A DNA stretch of 44,292 nt from Candidatus Sediminicultor quintus (GCA_001773955.1 MEYH01000048.1:13787-58078); one strand, 5' to 3'; shown: positions 1,183 to 44,292, counted from the first letter of the stretch. A program made the numbers and translations. The notes: a model not told the origin generated them from the letters alone.

Positions 1183-1262
1183 AAATAGTCGCTAGTAAAG
1201 AAGAAAATAGAATACAGGAACAAAGTTAGTATATAGTAAATAAAGTAAAAGAGAAAAAAGAA

Positions 1263-1283
1263 GGGGCGTATTGCATACACCCT
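1263..1283. repeat. degenerate REP-like hairpin (GGGGCGTATTGCATACACCCT)
   Basis: One mismatch from the GGGGCGTAT..ATACGCCCC stems at 17832 and 24264. Followed by CTGATAG, as is the copy at 32822. Confidence 0.4.
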
Positions 1284-6445: not shown

Positions 6446-6512
6446 AACCCGTAAATTAATTTTTCATGTAAAGAATATTGCTTGTATTTTACAGAAAAAA
6501 AGGGAGTATTAA

Positions 6513-7319
6513 ATGAAAGAGCAACCGGTTGGTTTTTTAGATTCGGGCTTAGGTGGTTTATCGGTAGTAAAAGAAGTAAAAAAATTGCTTCCCCGGGAAA
6601 ATATTGAATATTTTGCTGATAATCAGCGTCAACCTTATGGCGAGAAAAACCAATCAGAACTAACTAAATTTACTTTCCAGATAATTAGCTTCCTTTTAAA
6701 GAAAAAAATAAAAATTTGTGTTATAGCATGCAATACAGCTACCGCTGCCAGCCTCAAAAAAGTAAGAGAATATTTTTCCATTCCCATCATTGGAGTTATC
6801 CAGCCAGCAGTTCAAGATGCCATAAAGAAGACTTTAAACAAAAAGATTGGAATTATTGCCACCGAATTTACCACCAAAAATGGAGCTTATCTTAGAGAGA
6901 TTAAAAAAGTTGCTCCTGAAATAAAAGTTTTTTCTAATTTCTGCCCTAAATTTGTCTCTATAGTTGAGGCCGGTAAATTTACTGCACCTGAAACCTACGA
7001 AGTTGCCCGAGAATATTTAAAACCTTTAAAAGATGCGCAAATTGACACTTTGATATTAGGCTGTACACACTATTCCTTTTTAAAAAGGGTCATATCAGAT
7101 ATTATGGGTTCAGGAGTAATATTAATTGATCCATCTATCAGCACCTCATTAACTTTAAAAGAAGTTCTAATTCAAAAGGGAATCTCAAAAGAAGAAGGGG
7201 AAAGTAAAGAAAATTACTACACCACCGGTTTAACAGATAAAGTAAGAAAAACCGCTAAAATCATTCTTAATAGTGATAATATTGCAATCCAAAGAGTAAA
7301 GTTAGAAGAATTAGGATAA
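6513..7319 (+). CDS. murI: glutamate racemase
   Basis: FLDSGLGGLSV, catalytic Cys motifs ACNTAT and GCTHY. Confidence 0.92.
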   Translation: MKEQPVGFLDSGLGGLSVVKEVKKLLPRENIEYFADNQRQPYGEKNQSELTKFTFQIISFLLKKKIKICVIACNTATAASLKKVREYFSIPIIGVIQPAVQDAIKKTLNKKIGIIATEFTTKNGAYLREIKKVAPEIKVFSNFCPKFVSIVEAGKFTAPETYEVAREYLKPLKDAQIDTLILGCTHYSFLKRVISDIMGSGVILIDPSISTSLTLKEVLIQKGISKEEGESKENYYTTGLTDKVRKTAKIILNSDNIAIQRVKLEELG

Positions 7320-7373
7320 AATATTTAATTAGCATTATGTGATTACAACCCAAAAAGTAAACAAAATGATAAT

Positions 7374-7397
7374 GTAGAGGCACGATGTATCGTGCCC
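7374..7397 (+). repeat. REP-like hairpin with 5' GTAG
   Basis: GTAG A GGCACGAT GT ATCGTGCC C. Arms of 8 bp. Confidence 0.7.
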
Positions 7398-7455
7398 ACA
7401 GGATACTGAATTCTGACTCCCGAATTTATATGAGGACTGTGCAATTTTGGTTACT

Positions 7456-7519
7456 CTATATTCTATATGTTATGCGCTAAAAAACGAGATACGATTCACG
7501 AGATACGAGATACGTATTA
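7456..7519 (+). repeat. heptamer arrays CTATATT/CTATATG then CGAGATA family
   Basis: CTATATT CTATATG TTATGCG CTAAAAA, then (7485-7519) CGAGATA CGATTCA CGAGATA CGAGATA CGTATTA. Confidence 0.85.
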
Positions 7520-7589
7520 ATAGTATGTAATTTTTATAAAAATGTGTTAAAATTATTAAAACTTTGTTTTGAGAAGGAGGTAAGTAAAA

Positions 7590-8498
7590 ATGAAAGCTGA
7601 AAAAATCTGGATGGATGGGAAGATGGTCGATTGGGATGAGGCAAAAGTTCATGTATGCACTCATGCACTGCATTATGGGAGTGGAGTATTTGAAGGTATA
7701 AGGGCTTACGAGACCGAGAGTGGGACCGCAGTTTTTAGGTTAAAAGAACATATCGAACGCTTATTTAATTCTGCAAAAATATTTAAAATGGATATTCCTT
7801 ATACAAAAGAAGATATTAGGGAAGCTATTAAAAACACTATAAAGGCGAATAAGCTTAAGAGTGGTTACATCCGTCCTTTAATCTATCGTGGTTTTGAACA
7901 ATTAGGATTAAATCCCTTCACCTGTCCAGTTAATTGTTCTATTGCTGTTTGGGAATGGGGTGCTTATTTAGGTGAGGAAGCATTAGCGAATGGGATTAAA
8001 ACTAAGATTTCGAGTTATGCCCGAAGTTATATAAATTCCACCTCTCAAAAAGCTAAAATTTGTGGAAATTACGTTAATTCTATATTTGCTAAGATGGAAG
8101 CAATTGAAGCAGGGGCAGATGAAGCCATCTTATTAGACACAAGAGGCTTTGTAACTGAGGGATCAGGTGAGAATATATTTTGGATTAAAAATGGAATAAT
8201 TTATACAACGCCTACTGCCACAGTGTTAGAGGGAATTACCCGAGATTCTATAATAAAAATTGCAGAGGATATGAATTACCAATTTCAAGAGAAATATATC
8301 TGTCGAGATGAACTTTATATATCTGATGAGGTATTTTTTACCGGTACAGCGGCCGAAGTCACTCCTATCAGGGAAATTGATAATTATCAGATCGGTGAAG
8401 GTAAGCGTGGTCCAATAACTGAAAATATTCAGAAAAAGTTTTTTGCTATCGCTAAAGGGGAAGAAGAGAAATACTTAAGTTGGCTCGATTTTGTCTAA
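7590..8498 (+). CDS. ilvE: branched-chain amino acid aminotransferase (class IV)
   Basis: HALHYGSGVFEGIRAY and GTAAEVTPI. GAAGGAGG SD upstream. A D-amino-acid aminotransferase role cannot be fully excluded. Confidence 0.85.
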   Translation: MKAEKIWMDGKMVDWDEAKVHVCTHALHYGSGVFEGIRAYETESGTAVFRLKEHIERLFNSAKIFKMDIPYTKEDIREAIKNTIKANKLKSGYIRPLIYRGFEQLGLNPFTCPVNCSIAVWEWGAYLGEEALANGIKTKISSYARSYINSTSQKAKICGNYVNSIFAKMEAIEAGADEAILLDTRGFVTEGSGENIFWIKNGIIYTTPTATVLEGITRDSIIKIAEDMNYQFQEKYICRDELYISDEVFFTGTAAEVTPIREIDNYQIGEGKRGPITENIQKKFFAIAKGEEEKYLSWLDFV

Positions 8499-12418: not shown

Positions 12419-12453
12419 TAGTCGTTAGTGAATAGTGAATAGTCGTTAGTGGT
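12419..12453 (+). repeat. TAGTCGT/TAGTGAA array directly after the pcrA stop
   Basis: TAGTCGT TAGTGAA TAGTGAA TAGTCGT TAGTGGT, starting the base after TAA 12416-12418. Confidence 0.95.
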
Positions 12454-12475
12454 AGGGGCACGATGCATCGTGCCC
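12452..12475 (+). repeat. REP-like hairpin, GTAG + perfect 20-bp palindrome
   Basis: GTAG then GGGCACGATG CATCGTGCCC (12456-12475). Confidence 0.85.
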
Positions 12476-12503
12476 ATGGAAAACGAGAGGTAATAAAACA
12501 GGG

Positions 12504-12528
12504 AGGGCACAATTCATTGTGCCCCTAC
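12504..12528 (-). repeat. REP-like hairpin, inverted orientation (ends CCCCTAC)
   Basis: GGGCACAAT TC ATTGTGCCC followed by CTAC. With 12452-12475 it forms an inverted REP pair between convergent genes. Confidence 0.85.
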
Positions 12529-15756: not shown

Positions 15757-17831
<2,075 letters not shown>

Positions 17832-17833
<2 letters not shown>

Positions 17834-17859
17834 AGGGGCGTATTGCAATACGCCCCTAC
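17832..17859. repeat. REP-like hairpin, perfect 28-bp palindrome
   Basis: GTAGGGGCGTATTG CAATACGCCCCTAC. Confidence 0.9.
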
Positions 17860-17864
17860 TTCCA

Positions 17865-17960
17865 GTCATTGCGAGGAGTGAAACAAGCCTGCCCCATGCG
17901 AAAGCAGGGGAAGCAATCTCAATTGAGATTGCCACGCTTCCTGCGGTCGCTCGCAATGAC
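17865..17960 (+). repeat. 96-bp palindromic element bounded by GTCATTGCGAG / CTCGCAATGAC
   Basis: Terminal 11-mers are exact inverted repeats. Central palindrome AGCAATCTCAATTGAGATTGC. Confidence 0.85.
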
Positions 17961-17967
17961 AAAAACC

Positions 17968-17995
17968 TATACGCTATGCGCTATGCGCTATAATA
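17968..17995 (+). repeat. heptamer array TATACGC/TATGCGC
   Basis: TATACGC TATGCGC TATGCGC TATAATA. Confidence 0.85.
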
Positions 17996-18026
17996 CGAGA
18001 TACTATTTCAACAAGGAGAAAATATT

Positions 18027-18331: not shown

Positions 18332-18355
18332 GGGCACAATTCATTGTGCCCCTAC
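18332..18355 (-). repeat. REP-like hairpin inside the gatCAB operon
   Basis: GGGCACAAT TC ATTGTGCCC CTAC, identical in stem to 12505-12528. Lies 12 nt after the gatC stop and 28 nt before the gatA start. Confidence 0.85.
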
Positions 18356-21329: not shown

Positions 21330-21386
21330 GGGCACAATTCCTGTCTGCGTGCAGGCACGCACAACAGGCAGGTATTGTGCCCCTAC
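21330..21386 (-). repeat. composite: REP hairpin whose loop carries a 33-nt GC-rich palindrome
   Basis: GGGCACAAT TC [CTGTCTGCGTGCAGGCACGCACAACAGGCAGGT, 21341-21373] ATTGTGCCC CTAC. Uninterrupted versions at 12505 and 18332. Confidence 0.8.
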
Positions 21387-22469: not shown

Positions 22470-24119
22470 ATGTCCAAAGTATTAATGAAAGTTGACGGTG
22501 CCTGTTATCCCAACCCAGGGAATATGGCAATTGGGATAGTGATTTATAAAGATGGGAAATTATTTAAAAAAATAAGTGAGGCCATCGGTTATGGAACCAA
22601 TAATGTTGCTGAATATAAAGCCTTAATTAGAGGATTGGAAGAGGTAAAAGAAATAAACCCTGAGAGGGTGGATATATATTGTGATAGCCAACTACTGGTT
22701 AAACAATTAAATAAAAAGTACAAAGTTAGGAATAAAGGGATAGTCCCACTATTTATTCGGGTTGAAGAAATTATTCGAACTATTCCAGGGAAAGTATATT
22801 TCATCTGGAATAGAAGAGATGACAATACCATGGCCGATGGCCTGGCTAAAAGAGCTCTGACTGAAGAAGAAATAAGCAAGAGGGAACAGTCTGTTAAAGA
22901 TTTAAAGGTAGAACAAAAAGATGATTATTTTTTAGTAAGTAGTTCAAAGCCGGGAAAATATTATAAGGTTGATATAAATATTCCTCAGTGCGAATGTATA
23001 GATTTTTTAAGAAGAGCTCGAAAATTAAAACTCGAGTGTAAGCATATAATGGCAGTTCGGAATTTTTTGCAAGAATCGGGAAGAAAAAGAGAGACCAAGA
23101 ATAGGCCAGAGATGAAAATTTTGATATTAAGCAAGATGGTGAAACCTCAAGTATGGGAAAAGGTATTTGATGAATTAAATGAAAAGGCAAAACTTAATTT
23201 AGAGTTTATTATATCTAAAAAAGATGAAAGGGAAACTATTGAAAAATATCTCAAAGAAGTTGAAGCGGTAATAGGAGGAACTTTTAGTAAAGAAGATCTT
23301 GAACAGGCCAAGAAATTAAAATTAATTCAAATTCCTTTTGCCGGGGTAGATAAATTAGATTTTAGTTTGTATAAAAATTATCCAGATATATTTATTTGTA
23401 ATATCCATACCAATAAGTTTGCAGTTGCCGAACACGCCTTTGCTCTTATTTTAGCTTTGGCTAAAAATATTGTTATTAACGACAGAGATTTAAGATTGGG
23501 TAAATGGCATGGCTTTCCAGCCAAAGAGCCTACAGTTCAACTTCAGGGGAAAAGTTTGGGAATAGTAGGTTTGGGATCAATTGGATGGGAGATTGCTAAA
23601 ATTGGTCATACCTTAGGCATGAAAGTGTTTGCTTTAAAAAGGAAGATAGAAGAGAGGGATTTAAAAAAGAAAAATATTTTGGAATTTTTGGGAGAGAAAA
23701 AAGATTTGGCAGAAGTGATTAAAGAATCAGACTTTATTGTGGCAGCTGTTCCTCTGACTAAGGAAACCAGGGGATTAATTGGAAAGGAAGAGCTAAAGTT
23801 AATGAAGGGAAAATATCTTATAAATATTTCCCGAGGTGTGGTGATAGACGAGGAAGCTTTATTTAAATCTTTAAAAGAAGGTAATCTTACTGGAGCAGCA
23901 ATAGATACCTGGTATCAATATCCTTCTTCGGAACAGAGAGAAGTGTTACCCAGTAAATATGATTTTAATAAATTAGCTAATGTAGTGATGAGTCCTCATA
24001 CAGCAGGCTATACTGATAGAGCATTAGAAGAAAATATAAAGTCTGTTTTTGATAATATAGTGAAGATTTATTACGGGGAAGAACCAGAAAGTAGAATAGA
24101 TCCTGAATTGGAATATTGA
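22470..24119 (+). CDS. three-domain fusion: RNase H (type 1, RVT_3-like) + SWIM zinc finger + D-isomer 2-hydroxyacid dehydrogenase
   Basis: RNase H (aa 1-135): DEDD residues in VDGAC, NNVAEY, CDSQL, MADGLA. SWIM (aa 174-192): CEC-x13-CKH. Dehydrogenase (aa 215-549): GKSLGIVGLGSIGWEIAK Rossmann motif, NISRG, SPHTAG. Confidence 0.85.
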   Translation: MSKVLMKVDGACYPNPGNMAIGIVIYKDGKLFKKISEAIGYGTNNVAEYKALIRGLEEVKEINPERVDIYCDSQLLVKQLNKKYKVRNKGIVPLFIRVEEIIRTIPGKVYFIWNRRDDNTMADGLAKRALTEEEISKREQSVKDLKVEQKDDYFLVSSSKPGKYYKVDINIPQCECIDFLRRARKLKLECKHIMAVRNFLQESGRKRETKNRPEMKILILSKMVKPQVWEKVFDELNEKAKLNLEFIISKKDERETIEKYLKEVEAVIGGTFSKEDLEQAKKLKLIQIPFAGVDKLDFSLYKNYPDIFICNIHTNKFAVAEHAFALILALAKNIVINDRDLRLGKWHGFPAKEPTVQLQGKSLGIVGLGSIGWEIAKIGHTLGMKVFALKRKIEERDLKKKNILEFLGEKKDLAEVIKESDFIVAAVPLTKETRGLIGKEELKLMKGKYLINISRGVVIDEEALFKSLKEGNLTGAAIDTWYQYPSSEQREVLPSKYDFNKLANVVMSPHTAGYTDRALEENIKSVFDNIVKIYYGEEPESRIDPELEY

Positions 24120-24186: not shown

Positions 24187-24217
24187 ATTTTTCGTATAAA
24201 GTATATTATTATCGTAT

Positions 24218-24250
24218 AAAGGGGCAGATAAATCCGCCCCTTTATGTTTT
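24218..24250. terminator. intrinsic terminator between convergent genes, likely bidirectional
   Basis: AAAGGGGCAGA TAAA TCCGCCCCTTT (10 of 11 positions paired), followed by TTTATGTTTT. An A-rich stretch on the other side gives a U-tract for hflC transcripts. Confidence 0.75.
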
Positions 24251-24263
24251 GGTAATTATTTTT

Positions 24264-24286
24264 GGGCGTATGCAATACGCCCCTAC
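24264..24286 (-). repeat. REP-like hairpin ending CCCCTAC
   Basis: GGGCGTAT GCA ATACGCCC CTAC. Confidence 0.8.
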
Positions 24287-24293
24287 TTCTTTC

Positions 24294-24330
24294 CTAACTA
24301 TTCACTATTCACTAACGACTATTCACTATT
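24294..24330 (-). repeat. TAGTGAA/TAGTCGT array in the sense of hflC, abutting its stop codon
   Basis: TTCACTA TTCACTA ACGACTA TTCACTA TT on the plus strand. The hflC stop complement TTA is at 24331-24333. Confidence 0.9.
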
Positions 24331-26454: not shown

Positions 26455-26609
26455 CTAGTAGAGCGTTTCTTTAATAATGTTACAATGATTTGTCATTGCG
26501 AGCGATAGCGAAGCAATCTCAAGCCTTATAAATAAAGGGATTGCTTCGTCGCTTTGCTCCTCGCAATGATAGAACAAAATGTAAAGATATTTAGAGAACG
26601 CTTTACTAG
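26455..26609. repeat. 155-bp MITE-like palindromic element (outer arms CTAGTAGAGCG...CGCT(T/G)TACTAG, inner GTCATTGCGAG...CTCGCAATGA)
   Basis: Near-identical second copy at 36561-36716. No coding capacity. Confidence 0.9.
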
Positions 26610-32464: not shown

Positions 32465-32692
32465 ATGTGGAAAGTCATCTATATTGCTAAGGATTTTTTA
32501 TTAGCCAGAAATTTAGAAAAAGTATTAAAAGAAAAAGGGATTGTAACTATTCTAAACCAATTAGAAGTGGGGAAAAATGAATTATACGGAAATGTAGAAA
32601 TTTTAGTTCCTAAATGCGAAATTCAAGAAGCAGTTGATTTAATCAATCAAGTTCTGATTTGTAATGATGATTTTTTAGATGATGATGATTAG
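32465..32692 (+). CDS. small DUF2007-like protein (tentative)
   Basis: 75 aa from ATG 32465 (GAGGAT SD about 10 nt upstream; the ORF-track TTG at 32456 is less likely). Small alpha/beta pattern with an acidic tail. The family assignment is from memory only. Confidence 0.55.
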   Translation: MWKVIYIAKDFLLARNLEKVLKEKGIVTILNQLEVGKNELYGNVEILVPKCEIQEAVDLINQVLICNDDFLDDDD

Positions 32693-32738
32693 TATATAGT
32701 ATATAGTATATCGTATATCGTATATCGTATTTAGTAAA
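32690..32738 (+). repeat. heptamer array TAGTATA x3, TCGTATA x3, TAGTAAA, starting with the stop codon
   Basis: Unit 1 TAG is the stop codon 32690-32692. Confidence 0.95.
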
Positions 32739-32821: not shown

Positions 32822-32843
32822 GGGGCCTATTGCACCCCCCCCC
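32822..32843. repeat. degenerate REP-like remnant
   Basis: GGGGCCTATTGCACCCCCCCC followed by CTGATAG, as at 1263-1290. Confidence 0.35.
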
Positions 32844-32879: not shown

Positions 32880-32914
32880 TACGACATACGATATACGACA
32901 TACGATATACGAGA
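32880..32914 (-). repeat. heptamer array TACGACA/TACGATA x5, abutting the tRNA 3' end
   Basis: TACGACA TACGATA TACGACA TACGATA TACGAGA. In tRNA sense it reads TCGTATA/TCGTATG, the family that follows protein genes. Confidence 0.95.
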
Positions 32915-32917
32915 AAG

Positions 32918-33006
32918 TGGTGCCGAAGGTCGGAGTCGAACCGACACGAGCTGTGAGGCTCGCTGGATTTTGAGTCCAGTGCGTCTACCAATTTCGCCAC
33001 TCCGGC
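32918..33006 (-). tRNA. tRNA-Leu (anticodon CAA), class II, CCA encoded
   Basis: Hand-folded. Acceptor GCCGGAG/CTTCGGC, D stem GCG/CGC, anticodon stem CTGGA/TCCAG with loop CTCAAAA. Long variable arm CGAGC..GCTCG, T arm GTCGG TTCGACT CCGAC, then ACCA. Confidence 0.93.
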
Positions 33007-35812: not shown

Positions 35813-35832
35813 GTAGGGCGTATTGCATACGC
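35813..35832 (+). repeat. REP-like hairpin, eroded copy
   Basis: GTAG GG GCGTAT TGC ATACGC. The outer G:C pairs are lost. Confidence 0.55.
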
Positions 35833-36580: not shown

Positions 36581-36716
36581 TAATGTTACAATGATTTGTC
36601 ATTGCGAGCGATAGCGAAGCAATCTCAAGTCCTTATAAATAAAGGGATTGCTTCGTCGCTTTGCTCCTCGCAATGACAGAACAAAATGTAAAGATATTTA
36701 GAGAACGCTGTACTAG
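36561..36716. repeat. 156-bp MITE-like palindromic element, second copy
   Basis: Aligns base for base with 26455-26609, with only a few substitutions and a 1-nt indel by eye. Confidence 0.9.
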
Positions 36717-36768: not shown

Positions 36769-36792
36769 GGGTCGAATAAATTCAACCCCTAC
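36769..36792 (-). repeat. REP-like hairpin with a divergent stem
   Basis: GGGTCGAAT AA ATTCAACCC CTAC (one mismatch). Same GGG...CCCCTAC frame. Confidence 0.55.
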
Positions 36793-36997: not shown

Positions 36998-37046
36998 AAC
37001 GATATACGACAAACGATATACGACAAACGATATACGACATACGAAA
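36998..37046 (-). repeat. heptamer array AACGATA/TACGACA x7, abutting the ade RBS
   Basis: AACGATA TACGACA AACGATA TACGACA AACGATA TACGACA TACGAAA. Confidence 0.95.
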
Positions 37047-38893: not shown

Positions 38894-38917
38894 GGTCACG
38901 ATGCATCGTGCCCCTAC
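38894..38917 (-). repeat. REP-like hairpin ending CCCCTAC
   Basis: GGT CACGATG CATCGTG CCC CTAC. The inner 14 bp form a perfect palindrome. Confidence 0.8.
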
Positions 38918-38988: not shown

Positions 38989-39037
38989 AACTATATACGA
39001 TATACGATATACTATATACGCTATACGATATACGATA
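38989..39037 (-). repeat. heptamer array TACGATA family x7
   Basis: AACTATA TACGATA TACGATA TACTATA TACGCTA TACGATA TACGATA. Confidence 0.9.
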
Positions 39038-39114
39038 TTAAGAGTATAATTATTTAAGGGCAGAAGTGAGTTTTAAATTTTAATTATAGTTGTAGTTTCT
39101 AAAAGGTGTTGTAA

Positions 39115-41191: not shown

Positions 41192-41215
41192 CAACACAGC
41201 ACGCTGTGTTGCTAC
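41192..41215 (-). repeat. hairpin of REP architecture with an unrelated stem
   Basis: CAACACAGC AC GCTGTGTTG CTAC. Confidence 0.5.
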
Positions 41216-41374: not shown

Positions 41375-44197
41375 ATGGTTCAGGCGAAGATAATAATTAA
41401 AGGGGCACGAGAACATAATCTAAAGAATATTAATTTGGAAATACCTAGAAACAAATTAATTGTAATTACCGGATTGAGCGGTTCCGGTAAATCTTCTTTA
41501 GCTTTTGATACGATTTATGCAGAAGGCCAGAGAAGATATATTGAATCTTTGTCTTCTTATGCTCGTCAATTTATGGAAAGAATGAAAAAACCTGACCTGG
41601 ATTACATCGAAGGATTATCGCCGGCGATTTCTATTGATCAGAGAAAAGCAAGTAAGAATCCTCGCTCTACCGTAGGCACCGTAACGGAAATTTACGATTA
41701 TTTACGGTTACTTTTTGCCCGGATTGGAATACCTCATTGCCCGCAGTGCGGTAGGCAGGTTAGCAAGCAGACGGTCGAGCAGATGGTTGATCAAATTATA
41801 AATTTATCCCCGGGAACAAAAATACAAGTTTTAGCCCCGGTAATTCGCTTCAAAAAAGGTGAACACAAACAAATATTAGAAGATATTCAAAAGAAAGGAT
41901 TTGTTAGAGTAAGGGTTGATGGAAACACTTTCGAAGTAGAAGAGGATATAAAAATAGATCGTTATAAAAATCATAATATAGAAGTTGTAGTAGACAGGTT
42001 AATAGTAAATCCTGAAATGAAGACTCGTTTGGCTGGTTCTATCGAAACTGCTTTAAGTTTAAGTGAAGGAATAGTAGTTATTAATATAGAAGATGGTAAA
42101 GAAAAGATGTTTAGCGAGCATTTTTCTTGTCCCAGCTGTGGAATTAATTTACCAGAAATTGCTCCCCGAATCTTTTCATTTAATAATCCTTATGGAGCCT
42201 GTCCTGCTTGTGGTGGTTTAGGTTTTAAAATGGAATTTGATCCGGAATTAATTGTACCGGATAAGAACAAATCTATCCTTCAAGGTGCCTTAGTGCCCTG
42301 GGGAGAGGTTAAAGGAAAATATTTATACCACATATTAAAGGGTTTAGCCGATTTTTATGGCTTCAGCCTTGATACATCTTTCGTTAAATTAAAACCTGAA
42401 CTTCAGGAGATTATGTTATACGGCTCGGGAGGTATAAAAATACCCTTTAAATATCAGAATGATGAACAATCTACCAATTGGACTCATGAAAATTCTTTTG
42501 AAGGAGTAATTAATAATTTAAAAAGACGTTATCGAGAAACTAAATCAGAATATATTCGCACAGAGATACAAAAGTTTATGAATATTGGACCCTGTCCCTC
42601 TTGTGAGGGTAAAAGACTTCGTCCGGAAAGCTTAAGCGTTACTATTGATGGTTTTTCTATAGCGGATATTACCGAAAAATCTATCAAATGGAATTATGAT
42701 TTTTTTGAAAAACTGAAATTAGATGAAAGAAGAAGGATAATTGCCGTTCAAATTTTAAAAGAAATAAAAAATAGATTAAGTTTTTTAAGTAATGTAGGTT
42801 TAAATTATCTAACCCTATCTCGTTCATCTGCTACATTAGCAGGAGGAGAAAACCAGAGAATCCGTTTGGCTACCCAGATTGGCTCGAGCTTAACCGGAGT
42901 ACTTTACATCTTAGATGAACCGAGTATTGGTTTACATCAAAAAGATAATTCAAAACTTTTGAAGACTCTTATCAAACTGAGAGATTTAGGGAACACAGTG
43001 ATAGTAATAGAACATGATGAAGCTACGATGAGAATTGCAGATTACATTGTAGATCTTGGCCCTGGAGCAGGTATACATGGAGGATATTTAGTAGCTGAGG
43101 GGAGCTGCAAAGATATAATAGAAAATAAGAAATCTATTACTGGAAAATATCTGAGCCACTTCAGCAAGATTGATATCCCCTCCAGAAGAAGAAAGGGTAA
43201 TGGGAAATATTTAAAGATTTACGGAGCTCGTCAGTACAATTTAAAAAATATTGATGTATCTATTCCATTAGGTACACTGACTTGTATTACTGGAGTATCC
43301 GGTTCCGGGAAAAGTACTTTGATCGAGGAGACCTTGTATAAAACTTTAATCAAGAAAATATATCAGAGCAGAGTTCATCCTGGTGATTATGATAGGATTG
43401 AAGGAATAGAAAATATTGATAAAGTGATAATTATCGATCAATCACCCATAGGCAGAACATCTCGCTCTAATCCTGCTACTTACACCGGGGCATTTGCTCC
43501 GATTAGAGAAATATTTTCCAGGACAAAAGAGGCTAAAATTAGAGGTTATAAGGCGGGTAGATTTAGCTTTAATGTAAAAGGCGGTAGATGTGAGGCCTGT
43601 CAGGGTGGAGGGATAGTAAAGATTGAAATGTATTTTTTACCTGATGTATATATACCCTGTGAAATTTGTAAAGGCCAAAGGTTCAATCGTGAAACTTTGG
43701 ATATAAAATATAAGAGTAAAAATATAGCTCAGGCGTTAGATATGACTGTTGAAGAGGCTCTGGGATTTTTTTCAGCAATCCCTATTATAAAAAGAAAATT
43801 ACAAACTTTATATGATGTAGGATTAGGATATATAAAATTAGGACAATCCGCCACCACTATATCCGGTGGTGAAGCGCAAAGAGTGAAATTGGCTAAAGAA
43901 TTAAGCATTAAAAGTACAGGAAAAACCGCATATCTTTTAGACGAGCCTACTACTGGTCTGCATTTTGATGATGTAAAAAAATTACTCAATGTTTTAGATA
44001 GGTTGGTAGAGGCCGGGAATACAGTTTTGGTAATTGAACATAACTTAGAAGTAATTAAATCAGCAGATTATATTATTGATCTTGGTCCGGGAGGCGGAGA
44101 AGACGGCGGAAGAGTTGTGGCCGAGGGAACTCCTGAAGAAATAGCATATAATAAGAATTCATTTACTGGAGAATTTTTAAAAAAAGTGCTAAATTAG
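41375..44197 (+). CDS. uvrA: excinuclease ABC subunit A
   Basis: Two ABC modules ([20 protein letters not shown]), signatures LSGGENQR and ISGGEAQR, zinc fingers CPQCG and CEAC..C. Confidence 0.96.
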
Positions 44198-44258
44198 TCG
44201 TTAGTGAATTAGTCGTTAGTGAATAGTGAATAGTCGTTAGTATATCGTATCGCGTAAA
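44195..44258 (+). repeat. nine-unit array starting with the uvrA stop codon
   Basis: TAGTCGT TAGTGAAT TAGTCGT TAGTGAA TAGTGAA TAGTCGT TAGTATA TCGTATC GCGTAAA. Confidence 0.95.
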
Positions 44259-44276: not shown

Positions 44277-44292
44277 GTAGGGGCACGATGCA
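44277..44292 (+). repeat. REP-like hairpin, cut by the window end
   Basis: GTAGGGGCACGATGCA, identical to the first 16 nt of 12452-12475. Confidence 0.7.

Follow-up and report, generated by a model that had tools for sequence, protein, structure and literature searches.

GTAG-footed REP hairpins, probably of the TnpA_REP subclass 2.4 type, in a 44-kb genome segment of Candidatus Sediminicultor quintus

Hairpin units of the window

The DNA analysed here, referred to as the window, is a 44-kb segment (44,292 nucleotides, nt) of Candidatus Sediminicultor quintus (GCA_001773955.1, MEYH01000048.1:13787-58078) with approximately 33% GC and an intergenic share of 13%. Its genes lie nearly all on the + strand and are housekeeping genes, including guaA, purA, purB, murI, ilvE, pcrA, a ppiC-type isomerase gene, an ABC exporter, ligA, gatCAB, hflKC, dnaE, polA, adenine deaminase (ade), and uvrB, together with a 940-aa open reading frame (ORF; 41375-44197) that, judged by size and position alone, looks like uvrA. 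The spacers between these genes contain a 24-nt GC-rich element, represented by 14 units at 13 intergenic sites, in which an unpaired GTAG foot is followed by an 8-bp stem opening with GGGC and a 4-nt loop. An earlier note on this DNA had assigned these hairpins to the repetitive extragenic palindromes (REPs), and this assignment holds, as a GC-rich hairpin is present at each coordinate it named and the units combine the unpaired GTAG foot with a short perfect palindrome, high copy number, and an extragenic location 3' of genes. [quoted passage not shown] Sediminicultor-like). The system is a further example of a known one, not a new one.

The string GTAGGGGC occurs nine times in the window, while dinucleotide shuffles give an expectation of 0.32 and none of 100 shuffles reaches nine. 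GTAG is the commonest foot tetranucleotide of the window hairpins. Markov-simulated sequence gives an expectation of 0.13 GTAG-footed hairpins with an 8-bp stem and a 3-4-nt loop (maximum 1), whereas the window has nine of them at eight sites, so that such hairpins are 28- to 70-fold above chance. When folded as single-stranded DNA, the units reach -5 to -12.6 kcal/mol (z -2.6 to -6.3), with GTAG unpaired, a stem of 8 bp, and a loop of 4 nt. All 14 units are located in the intergenic 13% of the window, 3' of genes and 9-400 nt past a stop codon, and the three divergent (promoter-only) spacers of the window hold none. From this position, the units are probably co-transcribed and have a secondary role as RNA hairpins in 3' untranslated regions.

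The GTAG superfamily of REPs, palindromic units of 20-40 nt that are found mostly downstream of ORFs between unidirectional or convergent genes and fall into sub-families with complementary stem changes, has been catalogued across several phyla (Di Nocera et al., 2013, PMC3733652); the GTAGGGGC strings are absent from the supplements of that catalogue, and hence none of its numbers GTAG-1 to GTAG-24 can be assigned. The exact REP sequences were not found in the literature searched, and an Rfam scan of the window returned no family at any REP, its sole match being a tRNA. When the ORFs near 120 hairpin-bearing genome tiles were clustered, the RAYT cluster was the sole recurrent neighbour gene, which indicates that the hairpins are dispersed and not part of a larger gene cassette. 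Readings of the units as integron attC sites, CRISPR repeats, or operators in double-stranded DNA were ruled out by their anatomy, namely a single asymmetric foot, a position at 3' ends instead of promoters, and the lack of arrays and cargo.

Two of the units form an inverted pair between the convergent pcrA and ppiC-type isomerase genes. The left arm belongs to family A (12452..12475, + strand; GTAG GGGCACGATGCATCGTGCCC; -9.6 kcal/mol, z -5.0) and the right arm to family B (12505..12528, - strand; GTAG GGGCACAATGAATTGTGCCC), and the 29-nt spacer ATGGAAAACGAGAGGTAATAAAACAGGGA completes a 77-nt doublet (12452..12528) with the GTAG feet outside, which resembles the REP doublets known as REPINs (REP doublets forming hairpins). 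The whole region of 77-96 nt matches a contig of an Atribacterota metagenome-assembled genome (MAG) at 81%, and the doublet recurs at 78-91% identity in dozens of unrelated places on low-GC metagenome contigs. The window and 745 kb of related contigs together hold 340 REPs, among which 124 adjacent pairs were counted: 97 with GTAG outside, 8 with GTAG inside, and 19 in tandem. The spacing is exactly 29 nt in 51 of the 97 GTAG-outside pairs, and the sequence of the 29-nt spacer is conserved in the relatives. The pair had earlier been likened to a bacterial interspersed mosaic element (BIME). It is indeed inverted and located between convergent genes, and its GTAG feet point outward. With a conserved spacer, and with whole copies at dozens of sites in relatives, it fits the description of a REPIN-type doublet better than that of a BIME of Escherichia coli. 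The unit evolving in the Atribacterota lineage was thereby shown to be an inverted doublet of approximately 77 nt (A, 29-nt spacer, B), from which the singletons and the double-foot form appear to be derived by arm loss or internal deletion.

The cores of the units constitute five discrete families, A to E, that differ by compensated stem changes, and three G-C pairs (GGG/CCC) form the stem base of families A to D. Family A (core ACGATGCATCGT) is composed of the left doublet arm at 12452, a variant GTAGAGGCACGATGTATCGTGCCC 55 nt past murI (7374..7397, +), the surviving arm of a further doublet, GTAGGGGCACGATGCATCGTGACC (38894..38917, -), and a unit truncated by the window end (44277..44292, +). 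Family B (core ACAATGAATTGT) has the right doublet arm at 12505, a unit in the gatC-gatA spacer within the gatCAB operon (18332..18355, -), and a unit whose loop is split by a 33-nt hairpin (21330..21386, -). Family C (core GTATTGCAATAC) includes a double-foot REP 24 nt past ligA, which is the perfect 28-nt palindrome GTAGGGGCGTATTGCAATACGCCCCTAC (17832..17859; -12.6 kcal/mol), a variant with the loop shortened by a 1-nt deletion (24264..24286, -), an eroded unit GTAGGGCGTATTGCATACGC (35813..35832, +), and the eroded copies 1263 (1259..1282, +; without GTAG) and 32822 (GGGGCCTATTGCACCCCCCCCC; 32822..32843, +), both of which are followed by TGATAG. The tail TATGATAG of the unit at 1259..1282 also trails a C unit beside the RAYT gene of a related metagenome locus, L250. 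Family D consists of GTAGGGGTTGAATTTATTCGACCC (36769..36792, -), and family E of GTAG CAACACAGCGTGCTGTGTTG (41192..41215, -), which has the foot and geometry in common with the others but a different stem.

The frame GTAG-GGGC-core-GCCC-CTAC, which the earlier note had drawn for at least 12 copies, needs to be narrowed in several respects. The GTAG foot and the GGGC/GCCC frame are found, but both feet exist only at 17832 and the other units have one; the copy at 41192 keeps the GTAG foot and geometry without the GGGC/GCCC stem base, and the hairpin at 36769 reads GGGT...ACCC with one mismatch. The two copies that the note considered eroded (1263 and 32822) are so, and 35813, which it had listed among the copies with the full frame, is eroded as well.

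Family A differs from family B by one compensated pair (21 of 24 nt are identical between A and B units) and from family C by four. When 185,579 species genomes were scanned for fixed feet with two bases allowed at nine core positions (512 possible cores), at least 120 stretches matched, against roughly 2 expected by chance. Among the matches listed, at least 11 of the 16 possible palindromic stems were seen, and nearly all were fully complementary. Compensation was also observed at a single locus: in L153, from a species 81% identical, the left arm in the orthologous pcrA-ppiC spacer is GGGCCTCGATTCATCGAGCCC in place of GGGGCACGATGCATCGTGCCC, a change from CACGATG/CATCGTG to CTCGAT/ATCGAG. 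Similarly, family D has 13 relatives in related metagenome loci, among them the compensated variant TCGGATTTATCCGA, and family E recurs in L130 and also in L168, where an A:T pair has become G:C through a compensated change. Because stem changes are compensated across phyla, at the L153 site, and in families D and E, hairpin formation is under constraint. The covariation of always complementary cores, claimed previously, is therefore borne out between and within families, but the cores form discrete families and not a continuum. Within a genome, however, a few master sequences dominate the population. A accounts for 137 and B for 67 of 242 exact-frame matches; the B count of 67 of 242 includes approximately 120 copies matched by the B-type scan pattern, and the A count alone is free of selection.

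RAYT genes of the lineage and the distribution of their REPs

No Y1 or RAYT ORF is present among the window ORFs examined, in agreement with the earlier note. RAYT-like ORFs were identified in five of the 120 hairpin-bearing genome tiles listed, and in three of these five, a pattern-matching hairpin lies in frame inside the RAYT ORF, where it encodes the peptides RGVLQYAPT or RGTMHRAPT right after PNHxHG; tile L092 has the diverged in-frame peptide RRDTARCVPT at the corresponding position. A protein search returned at least 7,980 RAYT homologues that are approximately 60% identical across phyla, and a hairpin-encoded peptide occupies that position in nearly all of the 120 homologues listed. 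The core of the in-frame REP tracks the downstream RAYT segment (P0001-P0244): SPSQTIG..VRGFKS is the segment of enzymes with core C, FGKP.S.SIPTI.R.FKS that of enzymes with cores A/B/F, and PKSIG...AGFKS that of enzymes with GDRPVAP/VGATGRSP (GACCGGCCGGTC-type cores). Some RAYT genes contain several tandem or partial REP copies, for instance, P0054, P0095, and P0115.

A scan of metagenomes with the B unit yielded 120 low-GC contigs (GC 0.28-0.41), several of which are orthologous to window genes at 81-93% identity, and two of which encode a subclass 2.4 RAYT that has B/A doublets and the heptamer repeats of the window on its flanks. The lineage clade P0121-P0155 was obtained by a protein search from one such RAYT. 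In 22 of the 22 loci fetched (about seven protein variants), A(+)..B(-) doublets are found 8-200 nt from both ends of the RAYT gene, and most of these loci have an in-frame REP at +283 to +346, while the P0134 and P0235 types have an extra C unit 30 nt upstream. The chromosomal context is conserved (lgt ... RAYT ... rluD or a response-regulator gene), and across species the genes are intact and keep their synteny, at 69-100% identity.

The translation of P0134 (locus L250) possesses the motifs NHFH (HUH), WQ, and YIQNNP (catalytic Tyr), which match the subclass 2.4 signature of Quentin et al. (2018, PMC6006769). The best NCBIfam match of the RAYT is REP_Tyr_transpos, with 64-91 bits versus 17-29 bits for IS200 models. 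The sole PDB relative of P0134 is E. coli TnpA_REP (4ER8), and the residues reported as GTAG contacts (W94, Q95, E100, H101, and R104) are conserved in P0134. Judged from its sequence, the lineage enzyme matches TnpA_REP subclass 2.4, or RAYT group 4.

P0134 is 100% identical in ERZ27254736, ERZ4902948, and ERZ28563878, each of which also holds the strain of the window at 99.3% identity or more, and a member of the P0134 cluster comes from SRR4030066, a run in which a window protein is found too. One third species is 82-86% identical both to the P0134 contig and to the window, and these divergences are compatible with both belonging to one species. By this co-occurrence, the genome of the window likely encodes a P0134-type RAYT. 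The hairpin-flanked RAYT gene predicted in the earlier note was thus found in the same lineage at all 22 loci, but its link to the source genome is circumstantial. The MAG GCA_001767595.1, which carries P0134, was not returned in look-ups of two window proteins; the RAYTs P0121, P0122, P0125, and P0128 come from assemblies other than that of the window, and the 20-kb RAYT locus L275 does not overlap the window. In a further contig, L282 (ERZ27248961 k141_260001), the RAYT-response regulator locus of a related species directly adjoins murI-ilvE, a region orthologous to window 6509-7819 (82% identity). Gas-vesicle genes follow the RAYT locus in seven other contigs. The junction stems either from rearrangement at a REP or from chimeric assembly.

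Among the matches listed (L007-L126), identical REPs of 24-28 nt, such as GTAGGGGCGTATTGCAATACGCCCCTAC, exist in genomes that range in GC from 27 to 72% and represent roughly twenty phylum-level groups, including cyanobacteria, Planctomycetota, Chloroflexota, Desulfobacterota, Bacteroidota, CPR (Candidate Phyla Radiation), Omnitrophota, Nitrospirota, and Sumerlaeota. Some of the cross-phylum copies are embedded in longer palindromes made by their flanks. This identity, together with the tracking of the RAYT subclade by the core, suggests that the gene and its REP move together. A tentative extension, somewhat doubtful at present, is that the subclass 2.4 RAYT travels between phyla as a self-contained package whose in-frame REP seeds a new REP population on arrival, as this would explain the identical palindromes across phyla, the core tracking the RAYT subclade, and the Atribacterota expansion to approximately one REP per 3-4 kb. 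The in-frame REP has already been published; its seeding role and the meaning given here to the cross-phylum sequence identity are our own inference.

Proposed mechanism, known systems, and alternative explanations

The enzymes of E. coli, Stenotrophomonas maltophilia, and Marinomonas are known from in vitro work to bind the folded single-stranded hairpin, to need GTAG and an intact stem, and to perform a nearby phosphotyrosine cleavage and strand transfer (PMC3479197; PMC3333891; PMC8266576). By analogy with this biochemistry, a single-copy chromosomal RAYT (HUH/Y1, flanked by doublets, with a REP in frame) would bind the hairpin in single-stranded DNA, read its GTAG foot, nick nearby via a 5'-phosphotyrosine link, and transfer the strand, and this transfer would copy, move, or remove the elements in trans. 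If the hairpin is needed for RAYT action, compensated stem changes are to be expected.

Subclass 2.4 of Quentin et al. (2018, PMC6006769), equal to RAYT group 4 of Bertels et al. (2017, PMC5581495), is the nearest known counterpart. Features in common are the GT[AG]G foot with three consecutive G-C pairs at the stem base, single-foot ('canonical long') beside double-foot REPs, REPs both flanking the tnpA_REP gene and in frame between its HuH and Tyr motifs, the enzyme motifs NH[IFV]H, WQ, and YIxNNP, and a scattering over many phyla. The Atribacterota are absent from the taxa named in the consulted passages of the two papers (Cyanobacteria, Bacteroidetes, Chlorobia, Caldilineae, and others), and the dominant form in the Atribacterota lineage differs in being an A/B doublet of fixed spacing. 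Bertels et al. describe group-4 RAYTs as only weakly associated with abundant repeats, with approximately 14 occurrences of the associated 16-mers, whereas the density here, with 13 sites in 44 kb, is far higher. This density, high for a RAYT of group 4, and the identical REPs across roughly twenty phylum-level groups go slightly beyond the literature consulted.

The REPINs of Pseudomonas fluorescens and related systems (Bertels and Rainey, 2011, PMC3116915) are similarly repeated as a unit made of an inverted REP pair around a short conserved spacer. Their singletons are decayed doublets, their doublets flank a single-copy RAYT, and their sites are long-persisting and vertically inherited. 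They differ in their RAYT, which is of group 2 or 3 instead of 4, and in their near-identical arms, whereas two families (A/B) form the doublet here; moreover, group 2/3 REPINs are lineage-specific, while the REP sequences here are shared across phyla. The SMAG or REP_Sm elements of S. maltophilia with TnpA_Sm (Corneloup et al., 2021, PMC8266576; GTAG families 6-9, PMC3733652) are composed of GTAG, an 8-bp perfect stem, and a 3-nt loop (23 nt), compared with 24 nt and a 4-nt loop here, and have in common the head-to-head dimers and the sites between unidirectional and convergent genes. Their stem sequences differ, and their RAYT belongs to subclass 2.5 / group 3. The biochemistry is worked out for S. 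maltophilia, where TnpA_REP cleavage of the 23-nt REP needs GTAG and an intact stem (PMC8266576) and the CT cleavage site and the loop G have been defined. The E. coli REP/BIME system with TnpA_REP (RayT) resembles the present one in the GTAG 5' of an extragenic palindrome, in inverted pairs between convergent genes, and in a homologous HUH/Y1 enzyme with conserved GTAG-contact residues. However, the REPs of E. coli are longer and form imperfect, bulged palindromes, and its BIMEs are built from defined Y/Z REP types, with IHF- or gyrase-binding motifs in their linkers. Of these BIME traits, inspection of the doublet here revealed the inverted arrangement only, and it is not filed as a BIME.

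Several points weigh against the reading of the units as REPs of the subclass 2.4 type that are served by a RAYT in trans. To our knowledge, REP transposition in vivo has been shown for no RAYT, and the mechanism is taken from in vitro work on groups 2 and 3. The window has no RAYT, the RAYT of the lineage is tied to the source assembly by co-occurrence and inference, and just one of the 13 window sites is a doublet. The upper stem of family C differs from that of the REPs inside the RAYT of the lineage, so a second enzyme or relaxed specificity would be needed, and the CT dinucleotide, the cleavage site of known TnpA_REP, is not consistently beside the units. Finally, the positions of the pcrA-ppiC doublet and of the unit 3' of gatB are kept in species only 81-86% identical, which implies that movement is rare and that much of the pattern is vertical inheritance and decay.

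This last point suits an explanation in which the units originated as REPs but have since become inert relics, their RAYT lost or inactive, and the pattern reflects vertical inheritance, decay, and spacer recombination. Both L153 and L170 retain the pcrA-ppiC doublet at the orthologous position, with the left arm decayed in L170. An intact 24-nt B unit is present 3' of gatB in L228 (85% identical), where the window unit holds its nested hairpin. Between ade and uvrB, L149 (90% identical) has the full B(+)..A(-) doublet, of which the window retains the A arm only, and L201 has an A..B doublet 3' of ligA at the place of the double-foot C unit of the window. Related species thereby display turnover as well as persistence, and the turnover (a lost arm, a nested hairpin, a doublet in place of a double-foot unit), like that of the strain spacers described next, counts in favour of the REP-RAYT reading. 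Many window copies are singletons or eroded (1259, 32822, 35813, and 38894), and the link of the RAYT to the source genome is circumstantial. Moreover, strains differ by whole-spacer replacements, not by clean insertions: among strains 97-99% identical in ligA/gatC, the ligA-gatC spacer exists in three unrelated versions, one alone with a REP, and the double-foot unit 17832 is absent from it in L005/L257 and L258/L262. On the other side, the RAYT genes of the lineage are intact, as described above, most window copies still have a perfect hairpin and an intact GTAG, and the dominance of the A and B master sequences (137 and 67 of 242, of which only the A count is selection-free) is what continuing amplification or homogenisation would yield. 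Inert relics are an improbable alternative, though the most probable of the three considered. As a separate observation, the comparison of window 17809-18026 with L005/L257, L258/L262, and L259 gives three or four unrelated spacers, a whole-spacer replacement instead of point divergence; in L259, possibly a chimeric assembly, an element of the type of miniature inverted-repeat transposable elements (MITEs) runs into high-GC sequence.

It is less probable still that the hairpins are ordinary transcript-end elements, i.e., intrinsic terminators or 3' stabilisers selected in place as RNA without any transposase. The location of every unit 3' of genes and the empty divergent spacers agree with such a role, and four REP sites pass a loose terminator scan owing to the T-rich tail of the B unit or the spacer. 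The scan, however, found 12 terminator-like sites in the window against 12.2 expected, and most units have no T-run on the sense strand. One flagged site (18353-18330) is antisense to gatCAB, and its unit lies within the operon. Separate canonical T-run terminators are present instead, at 24216-24245 in the window and as the bidirectional AAAAAAAGGGTACGAATTAATCGTACCCTTTTTT beside the pcrA-ppiC doublet in L153/L170 (this AAAAAAAGGGTACGAATTAATCGTACCCTTTTTT terminator is missing from the window). Nor would independent terminators agree in their whole 24-nt sequence, in a GTAG foot, and in doublets spaced by a fixed 29 nt, or have copies flanking and inside a RAYT gene. Ordinary terminators had been put forward in the earlier note as the better account should there be neither a RAYT homologue nor an excess of GTAG at hairpin feet; a RAYT was found in the lineage, and GTAG-footed hairpins in the window number 9 versus 0.13 expected. 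The units are not ordinary terminators.

The least probable explanation, and a very unlikely one, derives the hairpins from the ends or from remnants of IS200/IS605-type elements, or from non-autonomous derivatives of these (palindrome-associated transposable elements, PATEs), moved by a classical TnpA_IS200: such elements do have subterminal hairpins recognised by a related Y1 enzyme and the RAYT-like ORFs match IS200 models weakly, but the units are 24 nt long (77 nt as doublets) with identical instead of distinct left and right ends, there is neither cargo nor tnpB, and the enzyme scores higher with the REP-associated model, shows the motifs of subclass 2.4, and lies in a conserved chromosomal context instead of being multi-copy.

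The reading of the units as REPs of the subclass 2.4 type extends the REP/REPIN-RAYT system to the Atribacterota, an uncultured, deep-subsurface, low-GC phylum for which no link to REPs or RAYTs was found in the literature searched. It also indicates that a group-4 / subclass-2.4 RAYT can go with a dense REP population, and the cross-phylum identity of the REPs provides a handle on the horizontal spread of REP-RAYT systems as a unit. In practical terms, REPs and the adjoining heptamer arrays are probably the cause of MAG contig breaks at spacers in this lineage and of its short RAYT contigs, and they are an annotation hazard through spurious ORFs and in-frame 'RGxxxxAPT' or 'VGAxxxxPL' peptides.

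Other repeats and genes of the window

Tandem arrays of heptamers (two to seven copies) fill nearly every spacer of the window and directly adjoin the REPs. Examples are located at 12426-12443, 17799-17829, 24297-24330, 32690-32736, 32880-32912, 36998-37044, 38993-39038, and 44192-44234, and the heptamers include TAGTGAA, TAGTCGT, ATACTCG, TACGACA/TACGATA, CTATGCG, and ACTATTC. Their copy number varies between strains via 7- and 21-nt indels. The arrays resemble the heptamer repeats of heterocystous cyanobacteria, while the host here belongs to the Atribacterota. A cyanobacterial origin of the window is rejected by its gene content and by the 90% clusters of its proteins, whose members are named Atribacteria.

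A MITE-like palindromic element of 80-96 nt with the terminal inverted repeats (TIRs) GTCATTGCGAG / CTCGCAATGAC is present at 17865-17960, 26492-26570, and 36598-36677, with a half copy at 2978, and TIR-like matches were seen in 30 fetched loci, some of them from other phyla. The GC-rich 33-nt hairpin CTGTCTGCGTGCAGGCACGCACAACAGGCAGGT, which sits in the loop of the B-type REP past gatB (window 21341-21373), is absent from the orthologous REP of L228, and a similar short insert, CCTGTCTGCAGG, occurs within the C-type REP beside the RAYT in L250.

Among the genes, a 549-aa ORF (22470-24119) encodes an unusual fusion, with RNase H as the N-terminal and D-2-hydroxyacid dehydrogenase as the C-terminal domain. 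The tRNA gene (32921-33006, - strand) is located just upstream of polA, approximately 80 nt from an eroded C-type REP.

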